NCBI GenBank assembly: GCA_964187785.1
Contig: OZ076409.1
Location: 74,464,001-74,528,000, forward strand
DNA: 64,000 nucleotides
Direction of reading: 5' to 3'
Origin: Amphiscolops sp. MND2022
Lineage: Eukaryota
The translations under genes and the position numbers were made by a program. A model generated the notes under the pieces. That model was not told the origin of the DNA and did not search any database. It was given only the letters and a program-made list of their open reading frames with translations. Below, in pieces: positions 1 through 64,000 of this stretch. Every line of letters begins with the position of its first letter. Position 1 is the first letter of the stretch.

Positions 1-260
1 GAAAAATGAGCTATAGAACAACTCTGTAGCTTAATCTGACGTTGACTTATGACATTTTGAGTGTGAGCATCCTATAGGATTTTAATGTCAAAAATGAGAT
101 TTTGTAAGTCATGTCTCATCAAAAACTCATCGGAATACGTTCAATCATCCCCATAGCTGTTCAATCACCGTTGCTTAGTAGAGCAACGCCATTTAACGTC
201 TTTGGACCCATTTTGAAAATTTTCGAAATCGTCTTATTCGTCCGATATCACGAAACAGTT

Positions 261-304
261 GAGTACATTCCATCTCCCCCTTGGGGGGAGATGAGAATGT
301 ACTC
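261..304 (+). other. Subterminal hairpin H1 (representative copy; present in nearly all short units)
   Basis: GAGTACATTC-CATCTCCCC-loop-GGGGAGATG-A-GAATGTACTC: ~19-bp stem with one unpaired base on the 3' arm and a variable loop, ~270 bp before the junction. Confidence 0.85.
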
Positions 305-501
305 GCCAAAGACCTGATATAATGGCCCATATTGTTTTTTATTTAACCTTTCTCACGATATTGCACACGGATAGCTGTGTTTGGTAAACGTTTTCCTTTG
401 CACCATACCTCCAAAAGCTAAACCACTTTTTTAGCTTACTACTTCTACTCAAACATCACTAACGTCAACGCCACACACTCTCACTAACGCCCACCGTCCG
501 T

Positions 502-521
502 GGGCATGCCGAGGCATGCCC
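502..521 (+). other. Core hairpin GGGCATGCC-GA-GGCATGCCC (representative; 36 intact copies)
   Basis: Perfect 9-bp inverted repeat, usually preceded by two (T/C)AACGCC direct repeats ~20 bp apart and flanked by CGTC...GACG; lies 40-50 nt before the terminal CTRG. Confidence 0.9.
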
Positions 522-571
522 TTCGACGACGTATGCCAAATAGCGCCACAGGGCGCAAATATTTCCGCTAG

Positions 572-1641
572 GTGGTCAAGGGGGATGCCCATCAGAAAAT
601 ATTGCGAGGCCGGGGAGGGTCCCGATTGCCGAGCACATTCTATCAATTCCTACCTTCAGGATTGCGAAGTATTTTAACCGATCTCGAAATTCACCCGTAG
701 GATTTGTCTGAAACTTTGCATGTGGCTTTATCTCAAAAATTTAAGAATTTTTTTCTGCTGACGTTTTTCCAGGAAAATTCATTTTGTAGGTTTTTTTTGC
801 CTTTTTTTGGTTTTTTTCATCTTTTTTCATCTTTGATTAATCAATGACCGAATCAAAGGCCATTTTCACCATGAAGGAAAGCCCGTAGCGGCAAAGTGCA
901 CTCTTATGAAAATCATCAACGGTCAACGGTCTTTCGAACGGTCCAAAAAAATTTCCCCCCGGGGGAAACCAAAGTGCCGAAAAGTGCCAAAATTATTTTT
1001 TTGACTGAATCACTTTGATCAAATTGATGATTTGAGCAGCCGGAACGGTCCGCACGGTCTCGGACAATAAGGTCAAAAATTGTCAGCATCCAATGGGGGT
1101 TCCAAAAATGTAATTCGTTCACCTGTAGGAGACATCAGAAAAAAGTTGATTTTTTGGGGTATATGTCATTATGAGTGATTGGATGAGAAATAATTGTATC
1201 ACTTTCAGTTGGATATGATGCAGCACAGGAAGCAGCTGCAGCAAACTTGAAACTGAATATGGGGCTGGGGTTTACCCTCTGTATCGAGCAAAATAGCCCT
1301 AGGGCATAAGTTGTGCCAAAAAATGCCTCAAAGTGATGATTTGGTTATTGCAAATCGATCAGCAAAATTTATTGTCACCGGTGTTCCGAGAGTTGCGCAG
1401 CATCTCGCAGGAACAACGGTGCTTGCTTAGAAAGCAAAAAACCACAAAATCCCTTGAGTTAAGTTGACGGCAGTCACCATAGACATTCACTCGTCAGGGT
1501 GATGATATTTATCGTTCAATCCCAGAATAACTTACAAAAAATTGCTAGCCTCAATATTTCTTTTTCATACTCCATTAGCAAAGGTTGCGCTGTTAAGTTT
1601 AGGCCTTTTATTAGCAGTGCTCTAAATCGCTCCATCGCTAG
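572..1641 (+). mobile_element. Divergent single-copy 1070-bp unit lacking the standard core hairpin
   Basis: Bounded by CTAG|GTG at both ends. Has the GGGGAGGGTCC box and CGATCTCGAAA...GAAACTTTGCATGTGGC motif at the normal offset, but an unrelated interior and its own hairpins at 1376-1421 and 1587-1620. Confidence 0.7.
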
Positions 1642-3683
1642 GTGGTCGGGGTTCTCTCCCCACCTTTATTTGCGAGCGCGGGAGACGGGTCCTGTCGCGA
1701 GCCTTAGATACCAAAAATAGCCTATCCGCGACCGGGTCAAAAAAATGCGATCTCGAAAACTAGCCGTACGATTTGGCTGAAATTTGGCACACGGCTTCCT
1801 ATAACAGTTCTAAGAAACATTTACTACTGACGTTTTGCTGGCAAAAATCGAAAAGTGGGTCAAAATAACGGTTTTTGGGGTAAAAAGTAGCGTTTTTTTG
1901 AAAATTTTGCATTTCACAGCCAATTACTCGGAAATGGTCGATCCAGCGCAGTAACGCCTTGCTGATTTATTGTTGGGCACGTCAAGAGGCGTACGTACAC
2001 AAACTTTCGTCAAAATTGGACTGAAACTTGGGGAGATATTAACGGTTTTTTGGGGGTTTCAAACCGCTATTTTACCGGAAATTGCACTTTTTGACCGGGA
2101 AGGAGTTGTCTGAGTGCGGGGTCGTCTGGTAATGTTTTGTAGAGCATCTGGGGACGTAGTGGGGGACATGTAATTTAATGACCCCGGTTAACCCCTCGGA
2201 CGGGAAATGACCGTTATGTGGGTTTTAAATGTGGCCCCCGCCAATTTTCCCCGTTATTTCCGGTGTGAAGGAGTGGTAGTAGCGCGTCGGGTGCCTTATA
2301 TCAAAAGTACGTTTAGACAAGGACCTATAGGAAACATGTGGTTTGGGACCCTTTGAACGGACCCGTTAGCCGCTAATGGGGTGACTGCCTCCTTTTTTTG
2401 GGGGTAAAACCGTAAAACGGGCATTGAAGTGAAATTAACTCGTGAACGCGTGGAGCTATCGTGTCCTTCACTACTACAAGGTTTCATACCCATGATATGG
2501 TGCCTTCAGGGGGGCGAACAGATTTCCGCTATCTATCACCGTTACGGACTTGGCCCCCCAGCCTAACCGCTATGTGACCGGAAATGTCACTTTTTGAGCC
2601 CAAATTGTCAGTCCCAGCGTGGCAACGTTAGGTAACATATTGTAGTACTCATTGAGACGAGTTGGGGGATTTAGTTTCAGTCACACCCTGTTGGCCCGTT
2701 AGGTCGGAAATGACCGTTATGTAGTGAAAAATGGGATTTTTATAGTTTTTGAAGGCCATTTCGGGCAGGAAGGAGGGGTAATATGACTTTGGACACCATA
2801 TGATGGAAGACGTGAAGTGTGACGAGCATTCCGGATTAACCGTTATGATGACCCGGAAGTCCCCCTGGCCCCGGAAATGACCAAAAAAATGTAACATTTT
2901 GTGTTTTTTGATTAAAAATGTTTGTTATTTAACCGAATAAAGTACATGTTAGGTGTTTCAATTTCTTCCAGAGGTGAATATAGTCCAATTACATGGTGGG
3001 GGGTAACGGTATATTGCCCCGGAAGTCCAACCCGTTGGGTCTGAGTATGTTTTTCGGGTTTTAAAATGTGTCAAAACGTACTTTTGTGTAATAAATCTCT
3101 ATTGTAGGCTAATAAGGACCATTTTTGAAGAGTTTAAATTTCTTCATAGTAGTTTGTGGAACACCAAAACCTCAAATAACATATAACGTTATGATATATT
3201 ATGATATCACACGTTATATTATGATAGCCTTTCAAGTTGGCCTTGTGTCAACTTGGAAAGGCTATCCTTCAAGACTCATACAACAAAGAAGTTTTTGGGT
3301 ACATTTGTAATGCTTTAGTGTCAATTAGAGTATCAACAAGAGTATACCAAGCACTAAAACTATGTCTAGTTTTCGTTATTAGGATATTAGTTTCCTGAAT
3401 ATTTGTCGGAAATGCTTTTTTTAATCTCTTTTAATGTGGTCTAAATACTCTGAAAACACTTTATCGAACCAATTTTCTTGGATGAACCTTAGTAACAATA
3501 CTAAAAATCGTAGACAACCTTGCTTCGTTTAAATATATGAAGCTGAAACCGCACCTTACCGTTGCTCAAACTTCAACCCGACGCCCCATAGCATACATCA
3601 ACGCACATCGTCTGTGGGCATGCCGAGGCATGCCCTTCGACGACGTATGCCAAATACCTTTAACCCGACGCCCGCAGTCCTGG
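1642..3683 (+). mobile_element. Long unit family L1 copy 1 (~2.0 kb, ACCGGAART-rich, ends CTGG)
   Basis: Near-identical to 18785-20799 end to end; many GACCGGAAAT/GACCGGAAGT motifs; hairpin GATAGCC...GGCTATC at 3223-3266; standard core; ends CAGTCCTGG|GTG. Confidence 0.85.
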
Positions 3684-5861
3684 GTGGATGGTATTTTATA
3701 ACAATTAAAGTGTTTTTTTCCGGAGTTTGTGGCTTTGGAAAAAACAAAAGGCGAGAAATTGGGCACTCCAGGCTGAACCTAAAAACACCCTAAAATTCGC
3801 CCGATTTTTTTACGATCTCGAAACCCAACCGTACGATTTGGCTGAAAATTTGCATGTGGCTCCTAATCAATGAGTAATGAAAAAGTGTAGAAGTGACTTT
3901 TCCTGGGAAAATTGTTTTTGTTGCACTTTTTGCGCAATTTTTGACCCATTGTTGCGTTTTTTATGTCACTTTCGACTTTTCAGGCAAAAAACTCATAGAT
4001 GCTTTGATCCTAGCGCATCCAGTGTTTCGACCAAAAAGTTGCAACATGGTCTTTTACGTACGTTGTGAAAATTTGGTAGCCATCGTATCACCCCCCACTG
4101 AGTTAGAGGGGAACTTCCGGTGGATTTTAGCACCCTAAAAACAAGGACCTCCTAAACTTCAGCATGAAGCCGTAGTTTTAGCGTGCTCATAACCTGCTGA
4201 AGTTTTGTTGGGCATGTTGAGATAGTCATGATAGCATGTGTTTAGTTCACCCCCCATCACCCCCTGGACCGGAAATGAACTTTTTGTGCACTATCATTCC
4301 GGAAGTCTCCAGTTTCACCGTTAAGCAGTCCTTGTACGAGCAACTACCAGGTCATCAAAATTGAAGTACCACCTGAGGTCAACGTAGTGACTACGTGTTG
4401 TCCAGTCATAGGTTCCTCTATGACCGGAAATGGGGTCAAAACCCCCTTTTTTGGTTGTTTTTTAACAATTTGACTAGTGTTTGGTCCACAATCAAGTCGC
4501 GTAAGTCCATTGAATCAGTGAGAGCAGAAATTGTATGTTCACTGCGTAGACATAACTGACTCTGACAGATACCGGAAGTAACCCCCCGTGACCGGAAGTT
4601 GTCATTTTTGACCGGAAATGGTCCAAAATAAAGCGTAAAATCAGTTTTTCACTGCTTTTTAAAGTCAACTTATTACTTTTTCAATCTTCGCGAGCTTGTA
4701 TTCAGATTCGTTTGTGTTACCCGTGCACTTTGCAACGAATATACATCTGTAAAGTTTTCTCTATATTATAGTCTGATAGAGAAATAACGTGTTTTTGGGA
4801 CTTTTTTCAAAATTATTAGACTATATCTGTCATTTTGACCCAACGTTATTCAACAGTACAACCACAGTGGTTAGTCTCTGCCCAAATATATGCCTAACAA
4901 AACTATTTGGCCCATTGGCCTCAGTTTGAGCGTTCCAGCTTTGCGTGTTCATTAGCTAAGGGACTTGAAAAATTTTCAAACTTTTTCAAAAAAAATTTTT
5001 CTCATATTTTTGTCTCCCAGAGTGAAGAAACTTTCACACAACTAGGATTGCTACTGGATGCATGTGGCAAGCCCTATAATTGAAGGGAAAAATTCCGCTT
5101 AGAACGTCTCTTTATCGTAACTTGACGTTAACGTATGGTGCTTTGAATGAGAGCTTGATAAGAGGTCGAGAAGTCAAAGTGTGTGAATGGAACGTATGTC
5201 TCGTCGCAAACTCATCGGAATACATGCAATGAACCCCAATTGTCCTGAATTGCAGTTGCCTACTGCAACAACGTTTTTCTGGTACATTTTACTCTTTTTC
5301 ATAAGTGTCAAAATTAGTTTTAAATTCAGTTAGCAAGAAACAATTGAGTACATTTTCATCTCTCCCCAGCGGGTGAGATGAGAATGTTCTTGCTAAATGC
5401 CAGGTACTACGGCCTCCTTTTGTTTTATTGCGATGCATTCTCTGCTTCAGCACATAGATATTTTATTTCGCTTGATTGTTTGTATACTCTCTGACTTGTT
5501 ATTATAAATTTCTCGTCATTACTTTACATAAATTTGCAACCATGAAACGGTATCGTCAACGCCACATACATTTAGACGCCACCATTCCGTAGGTATGTCG
5601 AGGCATACCTTTCGATTACGTATGTCAAAACGCAAACGCGATAAAAAATGCTGAAAGTCTGAAACAGTGACAAACAATTTTGACTATTTGACATATGGTA
5701 TGTTTTTATATGGAAGTTACGCATCACAGACATTTCACAACTTTCCAGCTGACGCCCACATACCAACATCAACGCCCACCGTCCGTGGGCATGCCGAGGC
5801 ATGCCCTTCGACGACGTATGCCAATTTCTATATATCTACACCCAATTGCGGTAGCAGCTAG
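3684..5861 (+). mobile_element. Chimeric 2.18-kb unit with an extra degenerate core
   Basis: Region ~4080-4690 is homologous to ~10070-10670 of unit 9696-11083. The 3' half carries short-unit modules (hairpin at ~5346-5390), a decayed core at ~5575-5628 and an intact core at ~5778-5823. Confidence 0.75.
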
Positions 5862-7141
5862 GTGGCCGGAAATTTTTTTTTTCAGCAAAATCTTTGCCAT
5901 TGGGGGAGGGGCCCCGGATGGCCAGTAGTTCGGCTTGGCTACCTGCAAAATCAGGTACAAAAAAACACGATCTCAAAATTGGCCCGTCAGAATTCGCTCA
6001 TTTTTTGCATGCGGCCCTAGAATCAATATATAAGAACAAAGTCCTGCTGACGTTTTACCCAAAAAACATTTTTTGTTGACCAAAAATAACATTTTTCATG
6101 CCAAAATGACCGTTTTTTCACATTTTTCAACTTTGAGAGCTCATATCTCGTTCCCAAGTGCCCGGAGCGGTTCGCCCGTGAACTGCAAAATTGCTCAGCG
6201 TTGTTAGCGGAGTGCGTGGACAAATTTTGGTCCAAATCGGACTCAAACTCGGGGAGATATAAACGGATTTTTGGGGGTTTCCGGGGTAAATTTTTTAACG
6301 GTCCAGCTTATCTTTGCCATTTTTTGGAAAATGTACTCGCCTAAAGGCCTCCCCCTGGCCGAATTTACTCCCAGCAAAACCATTTGGCCCTAAATACGGA
6401 GTTTCAGCGTTCTAGCATTTCCGGGCGAAAAGTTGTGGGACTTAGAAAAAATTCAAAATTTTTCAAAAAAATTTTTTTTTTCGTTTTCCGGCCCCCAATG
6501 AAGGGGAACGACCCCCCAACTAGGATTTTTGGTGAATCCATGCGAAAAGGTCTTGTTTAGTGGAGAAAAATGCCGTCTAGAGCGACTTTTTATCTTAACT
6601 TGACGTTGACTTATGTCGTTTTGAATTTGATATTAGTATGTGTTGAGCATGTGAAAAGTTGAATATTTCAGTTGTTCTTTCGTGTTAGCCATTGAGATAC
6701 AAGCTGTAGTGATCAAATTGTGATTTTTTGCAGTTTCGTGGTGCTTTTGGTGTATTTTGATTCATTTGATAAAAAAGTTGTTCTTTATATATTGACAATT
6801 TTGGTGTATTGATTCAAATGAACATGAAACAGTTGAGTACATTTCATCTCCCTCTTGAGGGAGATGAGAATGTACTCGCTAAAGTCCTAGTACTATGGCC
6901 CGTTTTTGTTTTTATCAGACGTAGATACTGCCAACGGATACTTTTTGTTGGTGCAACTTTCCTGTGCACAATGTCTTTAGAAGCTAGAAAACTCTATGTC
7001 TCTAGCTTACTTCTCCTACAAATTCGTCACCAACGTCAACGCCACACACTCTCACTAACGCCCACCGTCTGTGGGCATGCCGAGGCATGCCCTTCGACGA
7101 CGTATGCCAAATAGCGCCACAGGGCGCCCAATTTTGTCTAG
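5862..7141 (+). mobile_element. Short unit family B copy 1
   Basis: Near-identical over its full length to 29878-31155 (GTGGCCGGAAATTTTT...GGGCGCCCAATTTTGTCTAG) but with different neighbours on both sides. Confidence 0.85.
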
Positions 7142-9695
7142 GTGGCCGCGTCTTTTAGATGGACTTTTAGCCCTGAGGCGCGGGTAGGGTCCTGCGCCGA
7201 AACAGAGAAATTATACTACTGCACATAGCCCCGGTCCAGACACGATCTCGAAAACTGACCGTTAGAAATTCCTGAAAATTTGCATGTGGCCCCCAATTGG
7301 CGAGCAATGAAAAAGTGTAGGTGGTCGTTTTTCCCAAATTCCACTGTGAGAGGAGATATATGAAAAAAACGGACCCCAAAATGACGAAATTTTCACTTTT
7401 TGACCAAAAATGTGACATTATCTCCTCAGACAAGGCTCGGAGCAAAATTTGTCAGAACCCAAACCTGCAGCAGACTGTTAGAGCAGTGCACACAGTAAGT
7501 TTGAAGGAAATCGGATAATCACATGTGGAGAAATTGACGTTTTTCCGGCGAAATTTTTCGCAAATGCAGTCTATCTCTGCCGTTTTTTGCCCAAAATTTT
7601 TCCGAGACCTTCTCCTAAAGGCCTCCCCTGGCCCAATTTCCTCCCAAAAAAACCATTTGGCCCTAAATACGAGGTTTCAGCGTTCCAGCATTCCCCAGTG
7701 AAAAGTTATGGGACTTAGAAATTTTTCAAATATTTTCAATTTTTTTCTAAAAAAGTTCAGGCCGCCCAAAGTGAAGAAACTTCCACACAACTAGTATTGC
7801 AAGTGAATGCATGTGGAAAGCCCTGCACTTGACGAGAAAAATGCCGTTTAGAACGTCTTTTTATCTTTACTTGATGTTGACTTATGATCTTTTGAGTAAC
7901 GTATAACACGTGATCACAGTAGTGAAAATCCTAATTTTCAATAATTTTCAAACAAAAACGCATGAAAAGAATCTGGAAAGGTTCCGATGGGTCAGTCGGG
8001 ATGTCTGAAGCATGTGTACATTCCCGTAGTGTATAGCGGATGTTTTGGGACTTATTAGAAATTGTGATATATTTTATACAAGTCTTTGTTTCTCATAGAA
8101 TCTTATGCAGTTGAGTACATTCCATCTCCCTCTCAGGGGAGATGTGAATGTACGTTTGCCAAATGCCTTGTAAAGTTCACATGTTTGATGGACTTAACTA
8201 AAGAAACAAGTGTGAGTTGCGTTTGCCGAATCGCTACAGCAAAAAATACTAAAACTTTAGTCAGATTGAATGGTTTTTGTCGTTAGTGTTTCTTCTTGTA
8301 TAGCCGACTTCCACATCCAATTATCAACGCCCACCGTCCGTAGGCATGCCGAGGCATGCCTTTCGACGACGTATGCCAAATACCCAATGCCACACAGTCT
8401 TTCCCCGCTAGGTGCCGGTGTATTTTTACACAATGGGGGATGTTGCGCGTGTGGGGAGGGTCCCTGACGCGCTTCCGTGGTTTCGGGTCTTCTAACCTAT
8501 GATAGCGTGACACCTGACTTCGATCTCGTAAACTAGCCGTACGATTTGGCTGAAATTTGGCACACGTACCCCCCTCGGCACGGTGAAGATGATTTCCTAC
8601 TGACGTTTTTCCCGCTAAACATTTTTTGTTGACCAAAATAACGGTTTTTGGGGTAAAATTTTCAACTTTTTTTAAATTTCATCTTATATCTCGCCACGGG
8701 TACACGCTAGCGCTTCCAAACCTTGCTGACGAAAGTTTGCAAACTGTCTCAGGAATGCTGTGTGAAATTTTCAGCTCAATCGGACTCAAACTTGAGGAGA
8801 TATAGCGTTTTTCCGGAGCGGGGGGGTTTCATTTTTCTAACGGTCCAGCTTATCTTTGCCATTTTTTCGAAAATGCACTCGCCTAAAGGCCTCCCCTGGC
8901 CGGTTTTATTCCCAGCAAAACCATTTGGCCCTAAATACGGAGTTTCAGCGTTCCAGCATTCCTGGGCGAAAAGTTGTGGGACTTAGAAAAGTTCAAAAAA
9001 TTTCAAAAATTTTTTTTCCGTTATTTGGGCCCCCAAAGTGGGGGAAAAGACCCCCCAACCAGTAAAGCAAGTGAATGCATGTGCAAAGCCCTTGTTTAGA
9101 GGAGAAAAATGCCGTTTAGAACGTCTTTTTATCTTGGCTCAACGTTGACTTATGACGTTTTGAAGGTGATGTTTGGATGTGTAAAGCACGTGAATAGTAA
9201 ACGTTATGAGTATTTATCTGATCTGAAAGCCATTGAGATGCAATATGGTTTGCTCAAAACGTAATTCATGGCAGTTTGGCAATCAATCAACACCCGTTGT
9301 CGTTTGACATACTTTTTTGTTGTTATAAAAAAAATTTTGTGTAATTATTCATTTTTTTCTCATCAAATAACTTGAAACAGTTGAGTACATTCCATCCCCC
9401 CTTCCGGGGGAGATGAGAATGTACTCGCAAAAAGCTCCGAATTACGGCCCTTACCTTCCCGAGCTACGCAGTATAAGGATTGCATATTGGTTCCGACATT
9501 TTCATAGAGTTAAATCTTGGTAATCTGTCTGGATATGCAGAAAAATCAGCACGTGCCTTTTAATACCAAGTTGCTTACAACGACAATTATTTTATATCAA
9601 CGCCCCCATATTTATCAACGCCCCCCGTCCGTGGGCATGCCGAGGCATGCCCTTCGACGACGTATACCAAGATATGCGTTAACGCGTTAGCCTAG

Positions 9696-11083
9696 GTGGT
9701 TGGGGCGGTCCCCAGAACGCACAAGGAGGCGCGGGGAGGGTCCTGCGCCGACGTAGAATAATTTCATATAATACTAGTATCCTACATGGGTGTTTTAGAG
9801 GCGATTTTGGAATCTAACCGTAGGATTTGGATAATTTTTTGCATGCGGCCATAACTCGAAATTCTAAGAACTTTTTCTTACTGTCATTTTCCCCGCAAAT
9901 TGTTTTTCGTTGACTTATGGCCGAAAAACCGGAAATAACGTCCTTTTTAGACGTTATATCCGAAGTGTCGTCATAACTTTTTTCCAGGGCATGCTAGCGT
10001 TCTCGTTCACTTTTACACTTAGTTGCAGCATCTCAAAATACAACTGGTGGAAAATTTTGGTTGCATTCGGATCACCCCCCACCGAGATAGTAGGGTTCCC
10101 CCCTCCAGTTTTACCCCCCAAATTTGCAAAATAGCCAATTTTGAGCATGAAGCCGAGGATTTAGCGTACCCGCACCCTTCTGATGTTTTGTTGTACGTAT
10201 TGGGGTCAATCTGACCACATGTGTGGTTTTCACCCCCAACCCCCCCTGGGACCGGAAATGACATTTTTTTGTGTTTTTTGGCAGAATTTAGCCTTTTTCA
10301 TTATTAGGCAGTCGTTTTAGGGACTCTTAGCAGGATATCGAAATTGAAATACAACCTGATCACAACCCAGTGACAACATGTTGGCCACTTGGAGGTATCA
10401 TCATGACCGGAAGTGGGGTCAACCCCCCTTTTTGTGACCGCTTTTTGACCTTGTGCACCAAAATGCCAACATCTTGAGGCCTAATGAGGCATTCAAATCT
10501 GTACAAAGATAAAATGTTAGACAACCGAAGTCCCGGAAGATCTTTAGCATATACCGGAAGTTACCCCCCATGACCGGAAGTTACCCAATGTGACCGGAAA
10601 TGGTCCAAAAATTAATGTAAAGTTGAATTTTTCACTACTTCAAGACCACTTAATTGAAACTTTTCAATCTCAAAACTAGTGTACTGGCTTGTTTTGCTGA
10701 ATTTATGGAAATTGATGAGCTCTATCGCCCCCGATAGCCTTCGAAGTTGACCTTCCGTCAACTTTGGAGGCTATCGATAAAGAAAAATGAACAACAAAGT
10801 ACATTGTTGCTCTCGTTTTTTCCCGTTGTTTTTCCTCAAACATTCTTGAGACATATACATGGCCGTTAGTTGAAATCAATATTTAGGCCATGTTATAGCT
10901 GGAGCAGCGAAGCGTTACACAGACTAGTGTGGTTTTGAAATCACACTATTTAAATTAACAACTGACCGTCTTAGTCAACTCCACACATTCATACCAACGC
11001 CCAACGTCTGTGGGCATGCCGAGGCATGCCCTTCGACGACGTATGACGAATCCATTCCAACGACACCCGCAGTCCTCAGCTAG
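9696..11083 (+). mobile_element. 1.39-kb single-copy unit, ACCGGAART-rich, with GATAGCC-type hairpin
   Basis: Bounded by CTAG|GTG; hairpin at 10733-10775; standard core near 11005-11045. Confidence 0.75.
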
Positions 11084-53887: not shown

Positions 53888-54005
53888 GGAGGTATCCTTG
53901 CTAAAAAATAATTAGAGATGTTTTAGTAAAACGTTATATCCAAACTTTGAAAATGTTGAAAATGTTACATCCGAACTTTGATGCTGTCAAATTATTATAT
54001 AAATC

Positions 54006-54291
54006 TAAATCGTAAACTAAGAGGGTTAGAAGATTTTTAATGACATATTTGGAATCGTATAGAGGGGGCGCCAGGGGGCGCGCGGCTGACCAATATCCAT
54101 TTGGCGCAACATGTGATGACGCTGGAGGCACGGCCGCTCAATTACACTACTGATGACAAGGTGTTGAGCCTCCAACGTCATCACATGTTCAGCCAAATGG
54201 ATATTGGTCGGCCGCGCGCCCCCTGGCGCCCCCTCTATACGATCCCAAATATGTCATTAAAAATCTTCTAACCCTCTTAGTTTACTATTTA
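54006..54291. mobile_element. Foldback / MITE-like long inverted repeat
   Basis: Arms 54006-54129 and 54168-54291 (~124 bp, few mismatches) around a 38-bp spacer; no target-site duplication identified. Confidence 0.75.
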
Positions 54292-55770
54292 CATTCATTC
54301 ACCCGAACTTGATGATGGTTTAAATATTGGTACTAAATAATAATATTGAAATGAATAAATAATTTAAAAATATATTTGAAAACGTATTTAAATGTAAAAG
54401 GTATTCAAAAGTTAGTATACAGACGAACATATTCTAAATATGTACACCACCAAAAAACACTTTTTATGTTTCAGCATGTCCAAGGACTTTTAAAATTGAA
54501 TTTGAATAATTTATTTAGATTATGAGACTTTGCAAAAAAGAAAAGTTTGCAGTACTGAGTTTGTTCATCACTTGATTCAAAAGATGACAAAAATTTGGCG
54601 AAACAGCATTATGTTTTTTGTGTGAAATGATTAAACGCATTTTGACACTCAACTTACTTTCTTGTCCTGTTCTTTTTCAACAGAAGTAGTGAACAAAATT
54701 TTGCATTGATGTAAAGCTTGAAATCTCCCACTTTTGATTTCCTGTTTGATCAGGAAACTTTGAAAACTTATTCTTAAAAATTTTACGTTTCACTGACGAC
54801 TTACATCATTCAACACTATCATCAACCATTTGCTCCGCAACTGTTATTTTAGTTGGAAAACTTGACGTTTGAGAAAGTACATCTGTTTCATTCATTTTTG
54901 ATCTTCTTTAATTTTTCGATGATAGATGATAGCCAACCCCAAGATCTATGAAACGTAACTTTCTATAAAATGCTTCGTTGGGCCAAATAATCATTTCTGC
55001 GTCATCTAGAAAATTATAAAACTGATGCGGCCTATTTCAAACTAAGGGTTCTGTCGTCGAATCCTTGTTTTTTTTAAAAAAAATTAACACTCTTGCAGGT
55101 AATGACGAAAGCGAGTAATGGATAAGTTCGCTGTGGACTTTCACTATATTGTTAAGAGTCAATGCATCATCATCACTTACTAGTAGTGCTTTATTCTTAA
55201 AGTTCCAGTGCTTATTCTTTATACAAGTAGCAGAACTCTGAGTTGCAAAATGGATGTTTTCGGTATTTTTTGCAAACTCACAAAATATAAATTTCTGTGA
55301 GAAATCGATCCGGAATCTATGAATTTACTTCTGAAAGTTGGCATAAAATATTTTATACCAATCATTTTTGTAAAAACGATTAAATATACCACAGTTGAAT
55401 TCACCTAATTGGTATCGCTAAGGATCGAATAAAATAGTACGATTAATTACTTACGAATTTACCGGATATTTCTTTGGTCGTCACATCGGGTCTCAGATAC
55501 ATACGAATTAAACAAAAATCCGAATTATCCGGATACGAATTATTTACCGGAGTTGAGTTTATATTATTTTTCCCAGTAATTCCATGCTATAATAACTGAT
55601 CGTTATGCAGCATTGCGAAGTTGAAAAATAACAATTAGGGCTTAGTTTCGACTTAAGCTTGTTATTTTCCGCCACCACAATTTATTGTTTTATGCGTTTT
55701 TTCCAAATTCTGCCAAATCTCCACAATCTCCATGTCAGTTGCTCTCTGTTAGTTGATATTTGAAATACGA

Positions 55771-55810
55771 TGGCTCAGTTGGTAGTGCACCCGTCTATCA
55801 ATCGGTGTTT
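55771..55810 (+). other. tRNA-like 5' fragment (Pol III A-box), possibly a decayed SINE head
   Basis: TGGCTCAGTTGGTAGTGCAC resembles a tRNA D-arm/A-box; no intact T-arm or acceptor stem. Confidence 0.3.
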
Positions 55811-56680
55811 TGGCCACTAGCACTGTTCAAATAACGCTTTTGAGGGTCCAAGTTTTTTTCTAGTGGTCGCAGAGGCGCCGTATTCACACCACGTAAGCAG
55901 TGCCTCTAGTATTTGATAAAAAAGGTGCAATTTCTATCAAATTTTAGTACAGCGATTTTAAGACTGTGCAATTTTCGTAAAAACAATCCTAGGTACCCTC
56001 AGGCATCATAAAACCACTTGATATCAAGCTAGAGCATAATTCCACAAATCAAAGATCCCATATAACGTGTCAGTGTTTAGTTGGTTCATGGGCACCAATA
56101 AAGTTATTTCTCTAGCCAAGAACAAAGGGTTGAGCAAAAGGTTAGTGTTGGATACTGACTCTAGCACCGTTTAAAAGAGCGCTTTTGAGGGTCCGAACCT
56201 TTTTCTAATTGCCATAGAAGCGTCTAATTGACATCGCGTAAGGTGTGCCCATGTTATTTGACGAAAATGGGTGCATTTTGGACCAACTCCCCGTATAGAG
56301 ATTTTCGGGCGGTGCCAGAAGTTCACTTCGAAGAGCGATTTTCGTGAAAACGTTCTTAGGTGTCCTCAGCCATCATAAAACCACTTGAGATCAATCTAGA
56401 GCACACGTTCACATATCAGAGGTCCGATAGGTTTCGTTAGTGTTCTTTAGTTGGTTATTGGGCACCATTAAAGTTATTTCTCTAGCCAAGAACGATTTAA
56501 GTGTTGAGCAAAAGGTTAGTTTTGGCTACTAGCATCGTTTAAAAGAGCGCTTTTGAGGGTCGGAAATTTTTCGTAGTCGTCGTCAAAGTTCCACCACGCA
56601 AGTTGTACTGAAAGTATTTGACAAGCGGGTATTAGAGAATTTGGACTAACCCCAACCCTAGCGATTTTCTAGCAGCCAAA
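55805..56680 (+). repeat. Diverged tandem repeat, ~345-370 bp period, about 2.5 copies
   Basis: CTAGCA..GTT.AAA...CGCTTTTGAGGGTC at 55817, 56161 and 56529; GGGCACCA.TAAAGTTATTTCTCTAGCCAAGAAC and CATCATAAAACCACTTGA each occur twice. Confidence 0.8.
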
Positions 56681-57102
56681 AAAAACTTTTTTCTAACCCT
56701 AAGACCTTAAAACCCCATTTGTATTTTTAATATTTCTACTTTAGCAGGAATATTATTGTAACCTCAAACTTTCTACTTTTTTTCAGTACATATTTTCGGA
56801 CGATCTGAATAATTCAGATATTTTGTTCGGGAGTGAGTGTGAACGTGAGACTCAAAATTCTCAAGCTGCCGACGACAATTCGTTTCTCGTGCGATAAAAC
56901 GAGCGAGTGGTAATTATGCATTCGTACGCCGAATTCATTGACATGAAGCGAATGAGTATTAATTATTCGTTCGCCGAGAGCTTTGGCCGCAATTTCTTTT
57001 TTAGTGACATTAGCCTTTATAACTATAATGAACATGTATCTATTGGGACACGATTCAAAAGTTTTTGTTCAGTTATCAATAATCAAAAATCAAAACCACT
57101 CT

Positions 57103-57370
57103 AAAAATGCAAGCTACGTAATAATTGGAGACAGCCATTTAAAACGCATTAACCCTAATCAAATCCAAGGTGATGTGACTGTTGTTGCCCGTGATTGGCC
57201 TTCGAGCAAATCGTATTATCGAAAACTTTCTCCAACAATATCCAACTAAAGAGGTCTGCTTCCTCCTCGTCGGTAGGAATGACATAAGTTTTCATCCAAC
57301 CTATAACCTACATCCCAAAGCTGCACAGCAAACTGCTCACCGAATAATCAGTTGTCAAATTTTAATTGAA
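57103..57370 (+). pseudogene. Frameshifted SGNH/GDSL hydrolase-like fragment
   Basis: Frame of 57121 gives YVIIGDSHLKRI (block I GDS). After a +1 shift near 57190 the next frame gives VIGLRA (block II G) and CFLLVGRNDI (block III GxND). No block V DxxH seen. Confidence 0.55.
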
Positions 57371-57562
57371 ATTTTTTTCCGAGCTCGAAAGATTTTAAAT
57401 AGACCTGCACGTATGTTACAGCCGCCTTTAACAGTTTTTTCGTTTGTTATATCATGTTTACGGACATTTTTTGATAATTTGATAACATTTCGGCTGGTTA
57501 ACTTTTCGGCTCTGCGTGTATGAAGCTGCAAAAGTGAAAGGTACGTTTAAACGGCCTTTCAT

Positions 57563-57860
57563 TGGGTTGACCAAACGCCCCAGTAGGTCTGGCACGCGTT
57601 TCGCCACCGCGTTTCCTGAAGCCGCTGAGATAGGTAGGTTGTTTTCAATAAAAGGTAACTCAAAAATTTTTACTTATGGATTGACCAGACGCCCCAGTTG
57701 GTCTGGCACGCTTTTCGGCACCGTGTTTCCTGAAGCCGCTGAGATAGGTAGGTTGTTTTTCATAAACGGTAGCTCACAAAATTTTTTCTTTATGGGTTGA
57801 CCAGACGCCCCAGTTGGTCTGTCACGCTTTTCGGCACCGCGCTTCCTGAAGCCGCTGAGA
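57563..57860 (+). repeat. Three-copy tandem repeat, period 114-116 bp
   Basis: TGG(G/A)TTGACCA.ACGCCCCAGT.GGTCTG...TTCCTGAAGCCGCTGAGA at 57563, 57677 and 57793. Confidence 0.9.
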
Positions 57861-57900
57861 AAGGTGAATTTAAATCCCTTCAACATTCTGCGTTTGAACT

Positions 57901-57980
57901 CCTAGCAAGACCATCTAGCCCTTTTCACGCCATTTCAGCGTTCCAGCATTCCCGCGGGTATAAGATAAATGACTTAGAAT
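57901..57980 (+). other. Solo copy of the array's conserved internal motif F
   Basis: CCTAGCAAGACCATCTAGCCCT...TTTCAGCGTTCCAGCATTCCC...GACTTAGAA is colinear with the array's CCCAGCAAAACCATTTGGCCCT...TTTCAGCGTTCCAGCATTCCC...GACTTAGAA, including a 21-nt exact match. Confidence 0.8.
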
Positions 57981-58015
57981 TTTAGGCATTGTTTTCTAGA
58001 ATGGAGTTAACTTGC

Positions 58016-58352
58016 CTTAGGTTTCCTACGTTTACGATTCTAACGCTTAGGTTTTAGGCTTGCATTTGTTAGGCTTAGGCTTCTCTGGTTTAAGTTTTTA
58101 GGCTTAGGTTTTTTAGGTTAGGTTCATTAGGCTTTGCTTTTTTGGCTTAGATTTTATAGGATTTGGTTTATTACGCTTAGGTTTCTTAGTCTTAAATTTC
58201 TTAGGATTAGGTGTTTCAGTTTAGGTTCTTAGGCTTAGTAGGCTTAGGTGTCTTAGACTTAGGTTTATTAGGCTTAGGTTTCTTAGTCTTAGGTTTTAGG
58301 ATTAGGTTATCTAGGATTTGATTCATTAGGCTTTTGTTTGTTAGGTTTAGGT
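58016..58352 (+). repeat. Degenerate TTAGG(C/T) telomere-like microsatellite
   Basis: Dense TTAGGC/TTAGGT/TTAGGA units with T-rich spacers, e.g. TTAGGCTTAGGTTTCTTAGTCTTAGGTTTTAGGATTAGG. Confidence 0.8.
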
Positions 58353-58964
58353 TTTCTAAATTATGTCTCTGTTTTAAGTTTCAACGGTTAACTAAAATTT
58401 TCCTATTAAAAAAACCTCAAAACTTTTTATTTCTGTATATACAAGGTCAGCAGCTCTTCGTCTTCGAGCCCAGTAGGAACTGCAGCCGGAAAAAAAGATA
58501 TGAACATTTTTAAAACATTTTGCTTTTCTTCAAGTATTTTTGATATCCCATTTGATTACATTCGAATTCAACTTTTCCCAAGATTATTTCAACAATCAGT
58601 TTTCAACTTCTTGTTTGTTCAATAATTCCAAGATACAAGTTACAGTCTTCAAAACCAAGGTTCAAGATCTAAAAAATCAACAAGCAATACGATAACCACT
58701 TGTGTTAATTAAAAACAAGATATCTGAACAGTTGGTACTTTCAAGACTTCAAATGTTGCAAAAAACTCTTTATTGGATTCAAGAAATCAAAATGTAACAC
58801 AAGACGGACTTCTAAACTTCAAATACGAGTTCCTGTTGGCATATACGTCCTGCAAAAATTGCTCAATGTCAAATTTCATATTTACTTCACTCAATAACGT
58901 TTGTTACATATGTTTCCGCAGTTTTATTTAGCTTCATGAATTCCTAGGTATCGCTGTATTTGTA

Positions 58965-59120
58965 ATGTCTGGTGTTTGGTTATGGTTCTGTGTGTGCTTG
59001 TGCGTGCGGTATCAGGTTGTCTGCACGATTTTGTGCGTGTGCTGTGAAGTTGTGTCCTTGTGCTTTTGAGTGTCTTTGTATGGTGCGGCTGTGTGCGTAT
59101 ATGTGTGTGGACGTTTGTTT
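58965..59120 (+). repeat. TG-rich low-complexity tract
   Basis: Degenerate (TG)n, e.g. TGTGTGCTTGTGCGTGCGG...GTGTGCGTATATGTGTGTGG. Confidence 0.6.
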
Positions 59121-61087
59121 GTTTCTAATATCAAATGAAAAAGGATTGTATGTTGTTCAGGTTACCTTTCATTGACGTGAATCAATCGAATCCAGATAAA
59201 ACGAGCTAAGAAGCGCAAAATCAAGGCAAAGACGTGGTCACTTCTTCACCCAGCATTTCGAACAACAAGTGTATATTTCATTGGTTAATTTGAAAGGGTC
59301 CAGTACTTAGAACGTTTTGTTACTATATGTTTTGTTTTGCTTTTGACATGCGCTCTCCTTTGGAAACAAGTTAATCCTTTTAGTATCCGAGGTATGAAAG
59401 TTATATGAGAAATGCCCGATTTGTAAAAATTATAAATCCATCGAACGCAGCGACCTCTGTGATCTCCTAATAGGCCACAATGATGTCATGTTTCATGTTT
59501 GCAAAAATCCAAACCCAAAAACTGCTCTACATAAAGCTGGAAACCAGCAATTGTCAATTGTCTTATATCGATCAATGTCTATAGGTTTTCGAAGCTTGAA
59601 GTTTGAATCTGTAAGCTTTTTTGAAAAATGGAATTGATATATCTTTCTTTAGAAGTTGTGGTCTTCAATTATTCCACAATTTTCCTTGAAGAGCAGCTTT
59701 TTACCTTAAATTTGGCCTCCATGTAGATAAACAGGACAAAGTGCAACCTTGTATACAAAATAATTGAAGACATTTGTAAACTGCCTGAGATGATCTGATC
59801 TTTCAATTTGATTCTTTGCTCCTCAATGATGTAATTTTTTGATTAAATGAAATTAATTTTTTGATTAATTGAACTTGACACATTCTCGTTTATTATACCT
59901 TCTATTATAACGTAGAAAACACCGTTTGTTCGAAAACAGTTTTATTTGAAGTAATCCAATGTCAATTTATTTAGCTGAAACGGTTCAATGAACATTAGTC
60001 ATTGTCTGCACCTAAATTGCGTTTTAATAATTTGTCTCGGGGAATCCCTAGCGTTAACGTTTCAATTGTTTCTCGCTCTCAATTGTGATTCGTGATAACT
60101 TTAATTTTTCACACACTTTTTAACAAGTAAATGATTGAGGTAAAAATCACTTAAACCCTACAATAACAAAACAAGCAGTTAATATAAATTACATTGCTGT
60201 GAAACTGATTTAACAAGAAAAATAACAGTTAATATTTTCAGACTTTCGCATGAACAGAGTCTCATTCCATTTTCAAATTTCAAGAAAATCCATCTCATTC
60301 ATTCAAGAAGGAAGCGACACTTAATAAAATGGGAAACAAAAACGTATGTACCATGCTGTTTTTATTTTCTCCCAATTTAGCAACATTAAAGAATAAGCTT
60401 TTTTAAACTTCAGCGAAAACGGAACAGGTGTGGTGTGTGTCAAACCTTCATTGGTAACAGTTTCGCCTTTTGCAGTATGCATCAACCACGACATGATGAT
60501 GCAGTTAGTGTTTAGAATAATATAAAATAAAACCAATTAAAACCAATAAATTGCTGTTATAATCATCAAACTTGATTTTAAGGCCCACACAGACATCCAT
60601 GAAGCCCCTAGTTGCAAAAGACGTCAATTAGAAAGTAAGTGGATCTATTTAGTAGAAAAAATACATTCTCAAATAGATTTTATAGACACCTGTGTGTCTC
60701 TACTGAGCTATGTAAAAAAGCCATTATCAAACTACATCAGGTCAAATTTCTCCCATTATAAATGAACAAATCGATTGTATTTGGCCGTTCGCTGCTTCCA
60801 GTTTCTTGTCTCAACCGTCTTTTTTGTGATACGCTATCTGTTTCCATGAGTTCTGCCATTGTCCCACGAACCACGTTTCTTTTGTTTAAGGCTCCAATAT
60901 TGCAGGACCATCTTCATCAGTTGTTCTACACACACACCTTCCTCTGTCACCAGAGCAACTTACGATTGACGAACACTTACGCCAAACTGCTAGTGTTGGA
61001 TCTTCCGAACATAATGACCATACTGTCCCGTCTTCATCGACCTTTGAAACTCCAACTAGTAACCCTCACGATGACCACTTCAATTTG

Positions 61088-64000
61088 ATGCACAAGCTGA
61101 AAAATCATTTAGTATCTATGACCGGTGAAACCATGAATACAAACAACACGTCATCCATAGGTCTTTCCTGTGACAAATGTTTGCGGAAGTCAACAGTGTC
61201 CCACGAGATTAGCGTTTGTACTTACAACACCTCTGAACTTCAGATTAAGAACAGAAAGTTTGGTCGAAAACTTCCCTCAACTGATTACATCAACCTTTGT
61301 GCCCCTTGTCTTGAGTACACGACATCTGATTCCACAACGTTCAGAACTGCATGGCCGAGTATTTTGTGCTCCTATTGGGGTAATGAAGACAAAGATGAAG
61401 CCATTATAGAAAAACTAATTTCCTTTCTTCCTTGTACAATTATTGAAATGTTCTGTCATTCAATGGACAAATACAGTCAAGTTTTCAAAAAAGCCATACA
61501 GCACACTAACTTGTTGGTAAAAGACAGAACATCCGACAGAACTCTTCTCCTACAGGCTAAAATTGAACTCAAGGGTGCTGATTTGAAGCGTAATTTTGAC
61601 AAATTTCCTCTTCCCGATGTTATTTGTCCCTGGGGCTGCTGGGATTTTGTGGAAAGATGTCAAACACTGTCGTTCGAATTTTTCCTTGCCAAAATTGATA
61701 AAGATTTTCGCTTTTCGACCAACCAGGAATCGCTGTTAATGGGTGTTACATCCAATTTTCCAGAGGGTTATACTTTGCTGCAACAATTTGAGATTACACC
61801 CGCTGTAATTATAGAAGAAGATGGCCACTTTGCATTTCTTACTTGTTCTAAGCATTCGGGCGAAACTTTGCAATATCTTCATCCCCCCCGAAACCCAATA
61901 CTTAGCAGTGTCTCTCCCAACAAACCAGAGCGACTGGCTCTAACTCAACAGCAACTGAATATAGTTAAAACTGGCAAACCGAAGTTTAACTCTCACTCTA
62001 GTCACCTAATCGAAGAAAGAGGAAGTTTTACCGGCATCAGCAGTAGCACTCTTCAATTCCCCACGTTTCTAGAAAGTTCAACTCCATTGAACGACCTTTC
62101 CGAGTTTGTTATTTCAAAAGGACGTTCCGATGTCTACCCCCTGGTCGATTACTTTTTAGAAAACAATATTGTTGATCAAAATTTTGCTGACTTCTTGTTC
62201 AACAGTACCCTCAATCTCAGCCAAAATGAAATTGCAGCTGCAATTTCTGATTCAACGAATGTGTCTCTTTACGACGCTTTCAAGTTGCAGATGCATTTGA
62301 ATGAGAACCAGAATACTGAAGAACTGGAGATTTCTTTCCCCGTCTACGCACACAATCTCGGAAAAAACTCTGAATATGGATGTGTGCCACCACGTGTTTT
62401 CTCATCTGGAGCCATCGCAATTGTCTTTGAAGGATTAGGTCGTTTTACGGCTTCATTTCTTCCGAGTTTGCTCAAGTCTGATATTGACTCTCTTCGCCAG
62501 CTTTCTCAAAAATTCTGCAATCTTTTGTTTTTGACGGGGTCATCTAGACGTCGGATTCGCGCCGCCAAAGCTAAGGTTTCGATAATTGCTGAAAACATCA
62601 CTGAGCAACTTTCTGACAACTCTTCATCATTGAATAGCTTCTTCGAGTATCTGGTTGCTGGAAATTTAACTGCCTTCAAAGTGCCATCTCGTTCGTTCAC
62701 AAGTCTTCCCCCGACTGCTACAAACTCTGTCGATGGGCCGCTTTTTGTTTTTGCTCCCTCCCGGTCAGAGCGTGATTGTATTATACCACCAGATACTTTG
62801 ACACATAATTCGAAGATTTATCAACTTGTCTTCTTGAGCAAAAAGTTTTGGAATGCTGAATTTTACTGCCGCCATCAAAGAATTAATTCTGCATGGTTCG
62901 AGTCTTTTTCGTGTTTGAATTCGTTTACAGAGACCAGTTTTGGTAACTTCTACGATTTCGCAGCAAAAGGAACTTGGGATGTTGCTGTCTACGAGAAGCA
63001 GGATTCGTCTGATAGCCAAACGATGCTTAGAAGCTTTTTGAAAAGTATCGGGGGTCAGAACAACCTATCATGCGGAAGACACAATTGTCTATTGATTCAA
63101 AGGAATCCATCGGATACATTGACTTGCTTCAACACTTCATGCAGGAAAAAAGCCAAATGGGTATGCCCAAAAGTCGATTGCAATACTGGGGTGTGCAAAC
63201 AACACTCTGAAGACCTGATAAACGGTTCTTCAATGTGTGCGGTTACAAGTAATAAAGAACGAACTGTTCCACTTTTCCCAGAGGAATTTCAAAACCAAAA
63301 TGATAATAGTTTGGACAACGTAGCAAATAATGAACCTAACAGTCTTGAGTTACAACCTGAGTTAGACCTAATTTTTGAACCAGACAACTACTTGACCATG
63401 TCTGTTGACACATCAGATCAGACCCTTCCATTATCGTCCAATTCTGGTGTTCCTTTTGTCTCGTACTTCACTGAAGAAACCCACACGAAACGAGTACCTA
63501 CAAAAGTACTACTCAACAATTACTTGAATGTTCTTCAACGCTCCAAAGTACCTATTTGGACAACCAACGCCCACAAAAACTTTCTGCAGAGCATTGTAAG
63601 CAGAATTCCCAATACTTCTGCCCCACTTTTATACCCAGAAGCTCTCTTGTTCCCCAGTATTTTTTGGAAGCAACAAGAAGATGGCTCCTATGCAGGTGCT
63701 CTTCCATCCTGCCTACTCCAGTCAGACAAACTGAATACCAAACTTGGATTTGCAACTGTTTCGAAACATCTCTGGAACAGACTAACGAATGGGAGCTTGC
63801 TTACATCGAGCAGTATCGGCTATGCAAGTTTTGCTTTTGACATCAAAATGAACCAAGAGCTCAATAGAAGTCATAGCAACTACATTGTGTTCAAAAGAGG
63901 TTTTGAAGATTACTTGGGTGCAGATGAGGCCTTGAAGCTCCCCAATTGTGCCATCAAATGGGATGGACTCGACAGCTCGAAGAGGGTCCAAGAAGTTGCA
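61088..64000 (+). CDS. Large ORF (at least 971 aa, runs off the window); probable N-terminal part of a Helitron-like Rep/PIF1-helicase protein
   Basis: Hand translation is stop-free from 60890 to 64000; first ATG at 61088 (MHKLKNHLVSMTGETMNTN...). Motifs: CDKC...CAPC, AWPS, CPWGC (61625-61639), LTCSKH, YLHPPRNP, a Cys/His cluster at 63071-63205, and LLYPEALLFPSIFW (63626-63667)...GALPS...HLWNRLTN...FAFDIKMN. From memory this order precedes the HUH Rep domain in Helitron-like PIF1-annotated proteins; no search was run. The ORF is solid, the product call less so. A possible splice acceptor TTTCTTTTGTTTAAG ends at 60890. Confidence 0.75.
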   Translation, partial: MHKLKNHLVSMTGETMNTNNTSSIGLSCDKCLRKSTVSHEISVCTYNTSELQIKNRKFGRKLPSTDYINLCAPCLEYTTSDSTTFRTAWPSILCSYWGNEDKDEAIIEKLISFLPCTIIEMFCHSMDKYSQVFKKAIQHTNLLVKDRTSDRTLLLQAKIELKGADLKRNFDKFPLPDVICPWGCWDFVERCQTLSFEFFLAKIDKDFRFSTNQESLLMGVTSNFPEGYTLLQQFEITPAVIIEEDGHFAFLTCSKHSGETLQYLHPPRNPILSSVSPNKPERLALTQQQLNIVKTGKPKFNSHSSHLIEERGSFTGISSSTLQFPTFLESSTPLNDLSEFVISKGRSDVYPLVDYFLENNIVDQNFADFLFNSTLNLSQNEIAAAISDSTNVSLYDAFKLQMHLNENQNTEELEISFPVYAHNLGKNSEYGCVPPRVFSSGAIAIVFEGLGRFTASFLPSLLKSDIDSLRQLSQKFCNLLFLTGSSRRRIRAAKAKVSIIAENITEQLSDNSSSLNSFFEYLVAGNLTAFKVPSRSFTSLPPTATNSVDGPLFVFAPSRSERDCIIPPDTLTHNSKIYQLVFLSKKFWNAEFYCRHQRINSAWFESFSCLNSFTETSFGNFYDFAAKGTWDVAVYEKQDSSDSQTMLRSFLKSIGGQNNLSCGRHNCLLIQRNPSDTLTCFNTSCRKKAKWVCPKVDCNTGVCKQHSEDLINGSSMCAVTSNKERTVPLFPEEFQNQNDNSLDNVANNEPNSLELQPELDLIFEPDNYLTMSVDTSDQTLPLSSNSGVPFVSYFTEETHTKRVPTKVLLNNYLNVLQRSKVPIWTTNAHKNFLQSIVSRIPNTSAPLLYPEALLFPSIFWKQQEDGSYAGALPSCLLQSDKLNTKLGFATVSKHLWNRLTNGSLLTSSSIGYASFAFDIKMNQELNRSHSNYIVFKRGFEDYLGADEALKLPNCAIKWDGLDSSKRVQEVA

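Follow-up and report, generated by a model that had tools for sequence, protein, structure and literature searches.

How do dozens of barely related sequences come to lie head to tail, in one orientation and joined by a single invariant junction? This question is raised by a 64,000-nucleotide stretch of the 1.07-Gb genome of Amphiscolops sp. MND2022 (assembly GCA_964187785.1, contig OZ076409.1, here called C1, positions 74,464,001–74,528,000; hereafter the window), in which an earlier note had seen a shuffled array of cassettes served, in the manner of an integron, by an adjacent Helitron-like enzyme. Here we describe the units, the element that carries the enzyme gene, their insertion sites and the order in which they are stacked. 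The elements that carry the transposase gene belong to the stack like any other unit, and the arrays are most probably the work of selfish Helitron-like rolling-circle transposons that target their own junction, CTRG^GTG (a caret marks the joint or point of insertion throughout).

The motif CTRGGTG occurs 37 times on the plus strand of the window (35 with CTAG and 2 with CTGG) and twice on the minus strand, a total of 39 against 8.3 ± 2.9 in shuffled sequences, none of 100 shuffles reaching that number. All 36 of the 3’ core hairpins begin 58–74 nt upstream of a junction and all 36 signatures of the second 5’ hairpin sit 38–43 nt downstream of one, with neither found on the minus strand. Since these two markers were defined without CTRGGTG and give the same boundaries, the junction is not a product of its own definition; the single junction that lacks each marker does so because the unit family there has a different end. 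The junctions delimit 36 complete units of 1070–2178 bp, each running from GTG to CTRG, head to tail and co-oriented. A major family of 1.26–1.32 kb accounts for 21 of the 36, the remaining families share as little as 0–15% alignable sequence, and none of the 36 is interrupted internally. Copies of the 2.04-kb family share a CTGG end next to unlike neighbours, which indicates that the terminal tetranucleotide belongs to the element. The short units carry no passenger genes, with no pattern of open reading frames (ORFs) in the window and no Rfam match in 44000–64000. The array reaches at least 50 kb upstream of the window and resumes 8.6 kb downstream of it. The junction, the common orientation, the uninterrupted units and the coexistence of unlike families thus stand as the earlier note had described them.

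Across the arrays read, units fall into about 24 body families. Array heads are preceded by CTAG or CTGG in 201 of 204 cases, and the 5’ terminus is GTG in all units, not TC, a boundary that is fixed by the empty sites described below. A strong 3’ hairpin begins 58–74 nt before the end in most families and is absent in 8 of 24, and two 5’ hairpins are common to all head types. The outer stem of the second hairpin covaries (3.92 paired bases versus 2.66 ± 0.16, over 36 contexts with five mis-anchored ones kept), and both hairpins are likely recognition features. Separately, a metagenome element whose transposase is 26% identical (L100:195–225, L104:1–25) has a stem-loop with the same GGGAGGGTCCC top about 1.6 kb before its ORFs; this one case is a lead suggesting that distant hosts may share the 5’ hairpin (by our estimate, 0.4 bare motifs would be expected by chance in 287 kb).

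The enzyme gene lies within a cassette of the same kind. From the junction at 51127 a single 21,489-bp element extends to a core hairpin and CTAG^GTG 8.6 kb beyond the window, after which the array begins again. Two siblings, at 71.35 Mb on C1 and 65.22 Mb on contig C7, are 98–99% identical to it from the first base to the last, barring internal indels; the three are collinear end to end, and their neighbours differ on both sides. Measured between stop codons, the sibling ORFs are 2367 and 2370 codons long. The window copy is open as far as the window reaches, and its HUH, tyrosine, helicase and degenerate GIY-YIG parts are encoded past the window end; 340 bp beyond it, between the HUH and tyrosine motifs, a 17-bp deletion relative to both siblings shifts the frame. 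Of the earlier note’s large, intact, co-oriented ORF downstream of the array, the openness in the window and the orientation therefore hold, whereas the gene sits inside a cassette and is broken. A unit motif does recur upstream of the ORF, at 57933, as that note had pointed out. The association is general among the elements we examined for ends (8 of 139 protein matches): all eight are GTG...CTRG cassettes of 13.5–25 kb within arrays, with Rep-segment identity down to about 42%, and an ORF with unrelated ends of its own is thereby ruled out. The dedicated adjacent enzyme imagined at first is instead a mobile cassette that exists in dozens of versions, and the short units are related, non-coding forms of the long ones, with a first 980 bp that is 98–99% identical.

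The ORF product is a divergent Helitron-like transposase with an HUH (Y2) Rep domain and a PIF1-like helicase, in agreement with the first assignment. Pfam profiles detect Helitron_like_N (E 2.3e-6, just under the cut-off) and PIF1 (E 2.2e-9), and HUH, YxxKY and Walker A/B motifs are present in all seven full-length array ORFs translated. A 50-sequence profile aligns Rep motifs I–III to Helraiser (Protein Data Bank, PDB, entry 7LCC; E 1.2e-5), which is also the sole match at E<0.001 to the predicted Rep fold (predicted local distance difference test score, 82). A single-sequence search of the PDB gave nothing useful, and Pfam had no match in the window part of the ORF alone or in the C-terminal 150 residues. 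The proteins are 2,200–2,850 amino acids long, with a predicted USP-like fold towards the N terminus (model residues ~409–633; Z ~11, root-mean-square deviation 4, ~190 residues aligned), in which no conserved catalytic Cys was found, and a GIY-YIG domain at the C terminus. In the window ORF, the predicted USP-like fold occupies 62340–63020 and is followed by a conserved Cys/His cluster. The fold may represent a ubiquitin- or chromatin-binding module; the GIY-YIG is degenerate in the window family, so the nuclease is probably not needed for movement.

Array transposases are 33–100% identical to each other, with dozens of different ones in the same domain, and they belong to a larger group. At E<=0.001 we retrieved 1,082 related protein clusters, mostly unnamed, some of which probably derive from the source species or near species; an atlas search led to generic Helitron clusters. 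Of 16 homologs scanned, 15 have PIF1, 12 the C-terminal GIY-YIG and 4 an OTU domain. DUF6570 is absent from these 16 and from four further full-length relatives, and was found in five of six HLE2-like controls from the same genome; no hit to an apurinic/apyrimidinic (AP) endonuclease was obtained. That genome also holds canonical-type Helitrons, with Helitron_like_N scores of ~200 bits against 26–46 bits in the array proteins, and DUF6570-bearing HLE2-like or Helentron-like elements (~70 bits), both with long open frames (L202–L217) and, among the matches listed, in scattered places. A quick tree places 35 array and homolog rows apart from three canonical and two HLE2-like rows with support of 99 on long branches, its references being in-genome only and five of ten reference rows having been dropped where the motif anchor was not found. 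One transposase pair gives a ratio of nonsynonymous to synonymous divergence (dN/dS) of 0.22, dS being saturated between most families. Viral contigs yielded no relative and no core motif. Metagenome contigs contain 44 loci with relatives, at 1–17 kb too short to reveal arrays, and without terminal repeats; in five of these relatives (L080, L100, L102, L105 and L120) a second long ORF of 426–986 codons lies on the opposite strand downstream of the transposase.

To see where elements insert, we turned to empty copies of occupied sites, which can be read because four filled sites lie in repeats. The empty site reads CTAG^ATC in 11 of 11 paralogs, CTTG^ATT in six of seven loci fetched (the seventh has no alignable flank) and CTCG^ATA in seven of seven, one of them reading TTCG; for an 8-unit array in CTAG^TTGGAT, nine of 12 paralog sites are exact and the 3’ side agrees in 11 of 12, the 3’ match extending over ~12 nt. 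In all four sets the insertion amounts to an element GTG...CTAG with no target duplication and no loss, at G^A three times and G^T once, neither A^T nor T^T. Fourteen of 21 non-array starts read, part of them selected by a pattern excluding CTAG, follow CTNG, and 38 of 40 free 3’ ends have T at +2 (some of the 40 lack the core and may belong to other families). Insertion is thus precise, in one orientation, 3’ of a CTNG-type tetranucleotide, before (A/T/G)T and without duplication. A 4-bp target duplication of CTAG is ruled out, as the tetranucleotides differ in solo copies and the end travels with the family. Given targets of the form CTNG^DT with T at +2, the junction CTAG^GT is itself a perfect target.

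Copies are concentrated at such junctions. One common tail type has G as its next base in 1,899 cases and A or T in 43 (~98% G), and the first 100 G cases listed include a single solo; nearly all copies adjoin another copy, the flanks being other elements or dispersed repeats. Telomeric-repeat insertion was not seen at the flanks read. By a rough extrapolation from 193 kb of non-array DNA the genome holds ~1.1 million CTAG[AGT]T sites. Were the short motif all that mattered, the elements would be scattered, so something more draws them to junctions. One family occurs solo three times and last in three arrays, yet is also common inside arrays; its solo and last positions would fit addition on the 5’ side. 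Two loci merit separate mention: the empty site of the solo L047 is a high-copy tRNA-like dispersed repeat with 684 candidates (L135–L145), and at L198:2509–4491 a pair of elements, both preceded by a CTRG of their own, are separated by 16 bp and narrowly miss forming the exact joint.

The order of the units reveals how the arrays grew. Across 94 contiguous units, the head type is associated with the tail type of the same unit (0 of 5000 shuffles), and no such association appears between units that meet at a junction (p 0.15). Pooling 184 units allows 114 comparisons of the neighbours of near-identical copies, none of which reveals a shared neighbour, and adjacent twins occur once in 166. The lack of shared neighbours and near-lack of twins exclude concatemers and block duplication as the main route, and rule them out for the stretches read; the arrays were built one unit at a time, as the earlier note had proposed. 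An assembly artefact is likewise ruled out by the sequence differences between units, by their unique neighbours and by the clean empty sites of solo copies.

Genome-wide, a pattern combining junction and hairpin matches 4,921 times, against 0 for the control, and the first 100 matches listed all fall in four clusters. Transposase matches lie on the plus strand in 36 of 36 cases between 70.5 and 76.5 Mb on C1, and plus-strand cassettes were found in eight of eight samples between 70.45 and 75.3 Mb; samples at 70.44, 76.5, 76.7 and 77.0 Mb contained none. On contig C2 (102.0–103.9 Mb) eight matches on the minus strand are followed by eight on the plus strand, and on C3 (2.4–3.9 Mb) three minus by seven plus. 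Megabase domains of one orientation are present on at least three large contigs, and C1 by itself has at least five arrays, which differ greatly in size. Transposase-bearing elements measure 13–25 kb and non-autonomous relatives 1–5 kb. The array strand switches once, diverging on C2 and C3 and converging on C1 at ~23.978 Mb (C1:23.96–24.02 Mb), and the C2 array extends to the contig end.

A self-renewing target would account for this organization. In the route that we infer, the HUH domain would nick CTRG^GTG as its own origin, the same joint as would be carried by a circular intermediate. At the joint of two resident elements, the identical sequence and flanking hairpins could make the enzyme’s best target; a nick there would free the 3’-OH of CTRG, to which the 5’ end of the incoming strand would be joined. 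Each insertion would turn one joint into two and leave the resident ends intact. Because each event adds a joint and breaks no resident, big arrays would grow faster (sizes run from 8 units to a domain of ~6 Mb). Zones of like families might arise from partial preference for cognate ends or from short-range reinsertion. There is a precedent for the individual steps in Helraiser, which nicks its own 5’ end and forms circles with a precise end-to-end joint (PMC5876387, PMC4778049); this joint reads CTAG^TC and is cleaved in vitro (PMC5876387). By sequence alone, a circle joint and an array junction are indistinguishable.

Several observations weigh against such self-targeting. Seven of the 21 non-array starts, all outside the empty-site sets, lack CTNG (GTCC, TCTG, TTTA three times, TTCA and ACAA), and in one nested insertion outside arrays a unit lies at TTCA in another unit’s head (L051:1560–2800). 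Three of the 204 array heads deviate (CTTG, CTGT and one deletion across the joint), one long element contains a 5’-truncated unit, and an array end lies at 76.005 Mb within the 6-Mb C1 domain, of which ~250 kb was read. Neighbours belong to like families more often than expected (103 of 166 versus 83 ± 4, within stretches and with crude classes), so the order is less than fully shuffled. In addition, major-family bodies recombine: four-gamete conflicts become more frequent with distance, from 0.44 to 0.79, and in this family the head type shows no linkage to the tail type (p 0.19). Such exchange within the bodies of major-family copies goes part of the way towards one of the outcomes that the earlier note had set against its own reading. 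Finally, the evidence consists of sequence, and the preference for junctions might reflect chromatin, or the disappearance of dispersed copies, in place of any property of the enzyme.

This last point leads to the main alternative, that the enzyme reads the short CTNG^DT motif only, the arrays arising because integration is drawn to a chromatin domain or to the neighbourhood of the donor, or because dispersed copies are purged and those in arrays, which are free of genes, persist. The existence of solos at relaxed sites agrees with it, as do the family zones, which fit local hopping, the L198 insertion 16 bp off another element’s end, and the predicted USP-like module, which could bind chromatin. 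We nevertheless consider it unlikely: of the 161 CTAG sites in the window 35 are junctions and others lie within unit bodies, yet all 36 units are uninterrupted, small 8-unit arrays stack just as exactly, and selection would have to remove almost all the insertions expected from, roughly, a million motifs. Identical segments also occur in arrays on different contigs, and movement is therefore not only local. Growth of the satellite type, in which a few tandem insertions multiply through unequal exchange, gene conversion, rolling-circle concatemers or block read-through at the 3’ end, would explain the recombination signal in major-family bodies and homogeneous zones such as that at 2.66 Mb on C3, and tandem Helitron arrays and concatemers have been reported in plants and bats (PMC5876387, PMC5148889). 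For the stretches read it is already largely refuted by the unshared neighbours, the near-absence of twins, the lack of linkage across junctions, the coexistence of ~24 body families with transposases 33–100% identical, and the 21-kb siblings that have different neighbours at both ends, and we hold it to be very improbable.

Could the domains instead be used by the host, as an integron-like or centromere-like structure kept by a resident enzyme for the host’s benefit? The domains of megabase size and single orientation on three or more large contigs, the many long open ORFs with dN/dS of 0.22 in one pair, and the Helitrons of Paramecium, which cap chromosome ends (PMC13085455), might be read in this manner. 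Purifying selection is expected of any active transposon, however, and enzyme genes that are multi-copy mobile cassettes, the local one broken, short units devoid of passenger genes, and five or more very differently sized arrays on C1 leave this with the least credibility. Transposons that target their own junction therefore remain the reading that we favour.

Among known systems, canonical Helitrons (HLE1, such as Helraiser) share with these elements the HUH Y2 Rep fused to a PIF1-like helicase, the 3’ CTRR end, the absence of target duplication and non-autonomous relatives with common ends. HLE1 elements are defined by TC and A^T, and HLE2 by inverted repeats and T^T (PMC11417382); here elements start with GTG and the target is CTNG^DT. 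The 2,200–2,850-residue protein with its USP-like fold and GIY-YIG, its low Helitron_like_N scores, its separate side of the quick tree (with few, in-genome references) and the dispersal of canonical copies in the same genome further distinguish the two. HLE2 (Helitron2, Helentron) resembles the array elements in its RepHel core and long ORF, and OTU is found in 4 of 16 homologs here. The HELIANO survey reports UCH domains for HLE2 subgroups c and d, and one Sphagnum family that has captured a GIY-YIG (PMC11417382). Here, by contrast, the GIY-YIG is encoded in frame and occurs across the clade (12 of 16), and there is no T^T target, no DUF6570 (0 of 20 relatives versus 5 of 6 controls) and no AP endonuclease hit. 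A third Helitron clade, in Paramecium, falls outside HLE1 and HLE2, as the array elements probably do, and likewise has very long ORFs, an absolute orientation bias and a 3’ end, CCAA, that resembles its target, C4A2 repeats (PMC13085455); that target is the host telomere repeat, repeats are left between elements, and the sections consulted describe no exact element-to-element joint.

The logic of ends and target recalls bacterial elements. IS91 inserts at CTTG, GTTC, GTCC and CTCG, which resemble its terminal cleavage site, and IS91, IS801 and IS1294 have orientation-specific insertion by tetranucleotide, no duplication and two palindromes at the ori end (PMC13181058); CTTG, CTCG, CTAG and CTGG are among the targets here. 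The likeness is an analogy of logic and does not imply homology of the ends. The IS91 transposase is a small prokaryotic Y2 enzyme without a helicase, in contrast to a 2,370-residue RepHel in a 1.07-Gb genome, and self-stacked arrays are not described for IS91 in the available portion of that source (PMC13181058). Replitrons are defined by a Y1 Rep, no helicase and terminal direct repeats (PMC10288648), whereas here the motif is Y2, PIF1 is present and the two flanking tetranucleotides can differ.

Stacking as such has other parallels. Telomeric arrays of HeT-A and TART are head-to-tail stacks, mostly of one family, that extend the chromosome end. Integrons use a tyrosine-recombinase integrase and a fixed att site to collect gene cassettes, which are co-oriented, unlike in sequence, joined at one invariant crossover and added one at a time. 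The present arrays match integrons in the co-oriented unlike cassettes, the invariant joint and the one-at-a-time addition, and differ in having an HUH enzyme, no single attI or promoter, no passenger genes, solos at relaxed CTNG sites and an enzyme gene that is itself a cassette. In Drosophila, site-driven tandem dimers and arrays of transposable elements such as R1 and hobo are likewise head-to-tail stacks from repeated insertion at one kind of site; these mostly comprise one family and keep the duplicated host target between copies (PMC5932611). Unlike these and the HeT-A/TART arrays, the joint here consists of two element ends alone, with dozens of families mixed. Tandem Helitrons have been reported in plants, bats and flies (PMC5148889, PMC5876387), and a subtelomeric Helitron-like expansion in Hydractinia (PMC11934779). 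In the literature covered, which was incomplete and excluded Repbase and most subscription papers, we found neither this clade nor the exact stacking of many families described.

What emerges is not an integron but a real variant of the rolling-circle transposon with self-stacking behaviour, known here from one genome. It offers a route from transposons to megabase tandem DNA without unequal crossing-over or concatemers, the joint being regenerated by each insertion, and adds a Helitron-like lineage with IS91-logic ends and target that would escape tools built around TC...CTRR or inverted repeats. Should the enzyme itself be the source of the preference, these elements would provide a natural, scar-free means of adding kilobase cargo again and again at a site that renews itself, and target choice by an HUH transposase could be tested directly on short junction substrates. 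It is conceivable, if rather doubtful, that a widespread Rep–PIF1–GIY-YIG clade uses its HUH enzyme as an iterative site-specific integrase that reads its own reconstituted origin, adding 1–25 kb of cargo scar-free with the site kept and forming one-way stacks of megabase length in many species, so that selfish elements alone would yield a eukaryotic equivalent of cassette arrays.

Table 1. Positions of the array units, element ends and transposase cassette in the window.
Position	Strand	Feature	Remark
1..571	+	3’ part of a 1272-bp unit	unit begun before the window
568..574	+	first of 37 CTRG^GTG junctions	
1638, 3680, 5858, 7138, 8408, 9692, 11080, 12355, 13647, 14937, 16205, 17493, 18781, 20796, 22085, 23369, 24643, 26613, 27902, 29874, 31152, 33145, 34433, 35695, 36986, 38274, 39565, 40851, 42138, 43406, 44678, 45963, 47250, 48565, 49850, 51123	+	other 36 junctions	start positions
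572..51126	+	36 complete non-autonomous cassettes	GTG...CTRG
572..1641	+	1070-bp family	usual termini, without the common 3’ core hairpin
1642..3683	+	2.04-kb family	terminal CTGG; copy 2 at 18785–20799
3684..5861	+	2178-bp family	variant 5’ hairpin
8412..9695	+	major 1.26–1.32 kb family, example	mosaic body
24647..26616	+	1.97–1.99 kb family, example	others at 27906–29877 and 31156–33148
51068..51126	+	3’ end, example	core palindrome hairpin, variable tail, terminal CTAG
51127..51190	+	5’ end	GTG, hairpin 1, hairpin 2 (GGG-KAGGGY-CCY top, covarying stem)
51127..64000	+	5’ 12.9 kb of the 21,489-bp transposase cassette	end at window-equivalent 72615
51127..52106	+	first 980 bp of the cassette	98–99% identical to a 1267-bp non-autonomous, non-coding unit family
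57933..57953	+	internal unit motif, second copy	first copy at 51663
60890..64000	+	RepHel-like ORF, 5’ part	first ATG 61088 or 61118; Cys/His cluster 63071; conserved pre-Rep block 63623

Some further features of the units and of the long cassette may be recorded. The 1.27–1.29 kb families have an internal palindrome at ~960–1010 of many units (window 52080–52106), and similarity between the long cassette and its short relative stops exactly at the loop of that palindrome. A 300-bp inverted repeat with 87% identical arms (window 53990–54300) is present in the long cassette and both siblings, and minisatellites at 57563–57865 and 58038–58355 comprise 114-bp repeats and a TTAGG-rich degenerate tract. 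After the ORF (L001:8500–10000 and L002:1–1030), ~300-bp repeats with a 1273-bp higher-order duplication follow, and these ~300-bp repeats are common to two related long elements.

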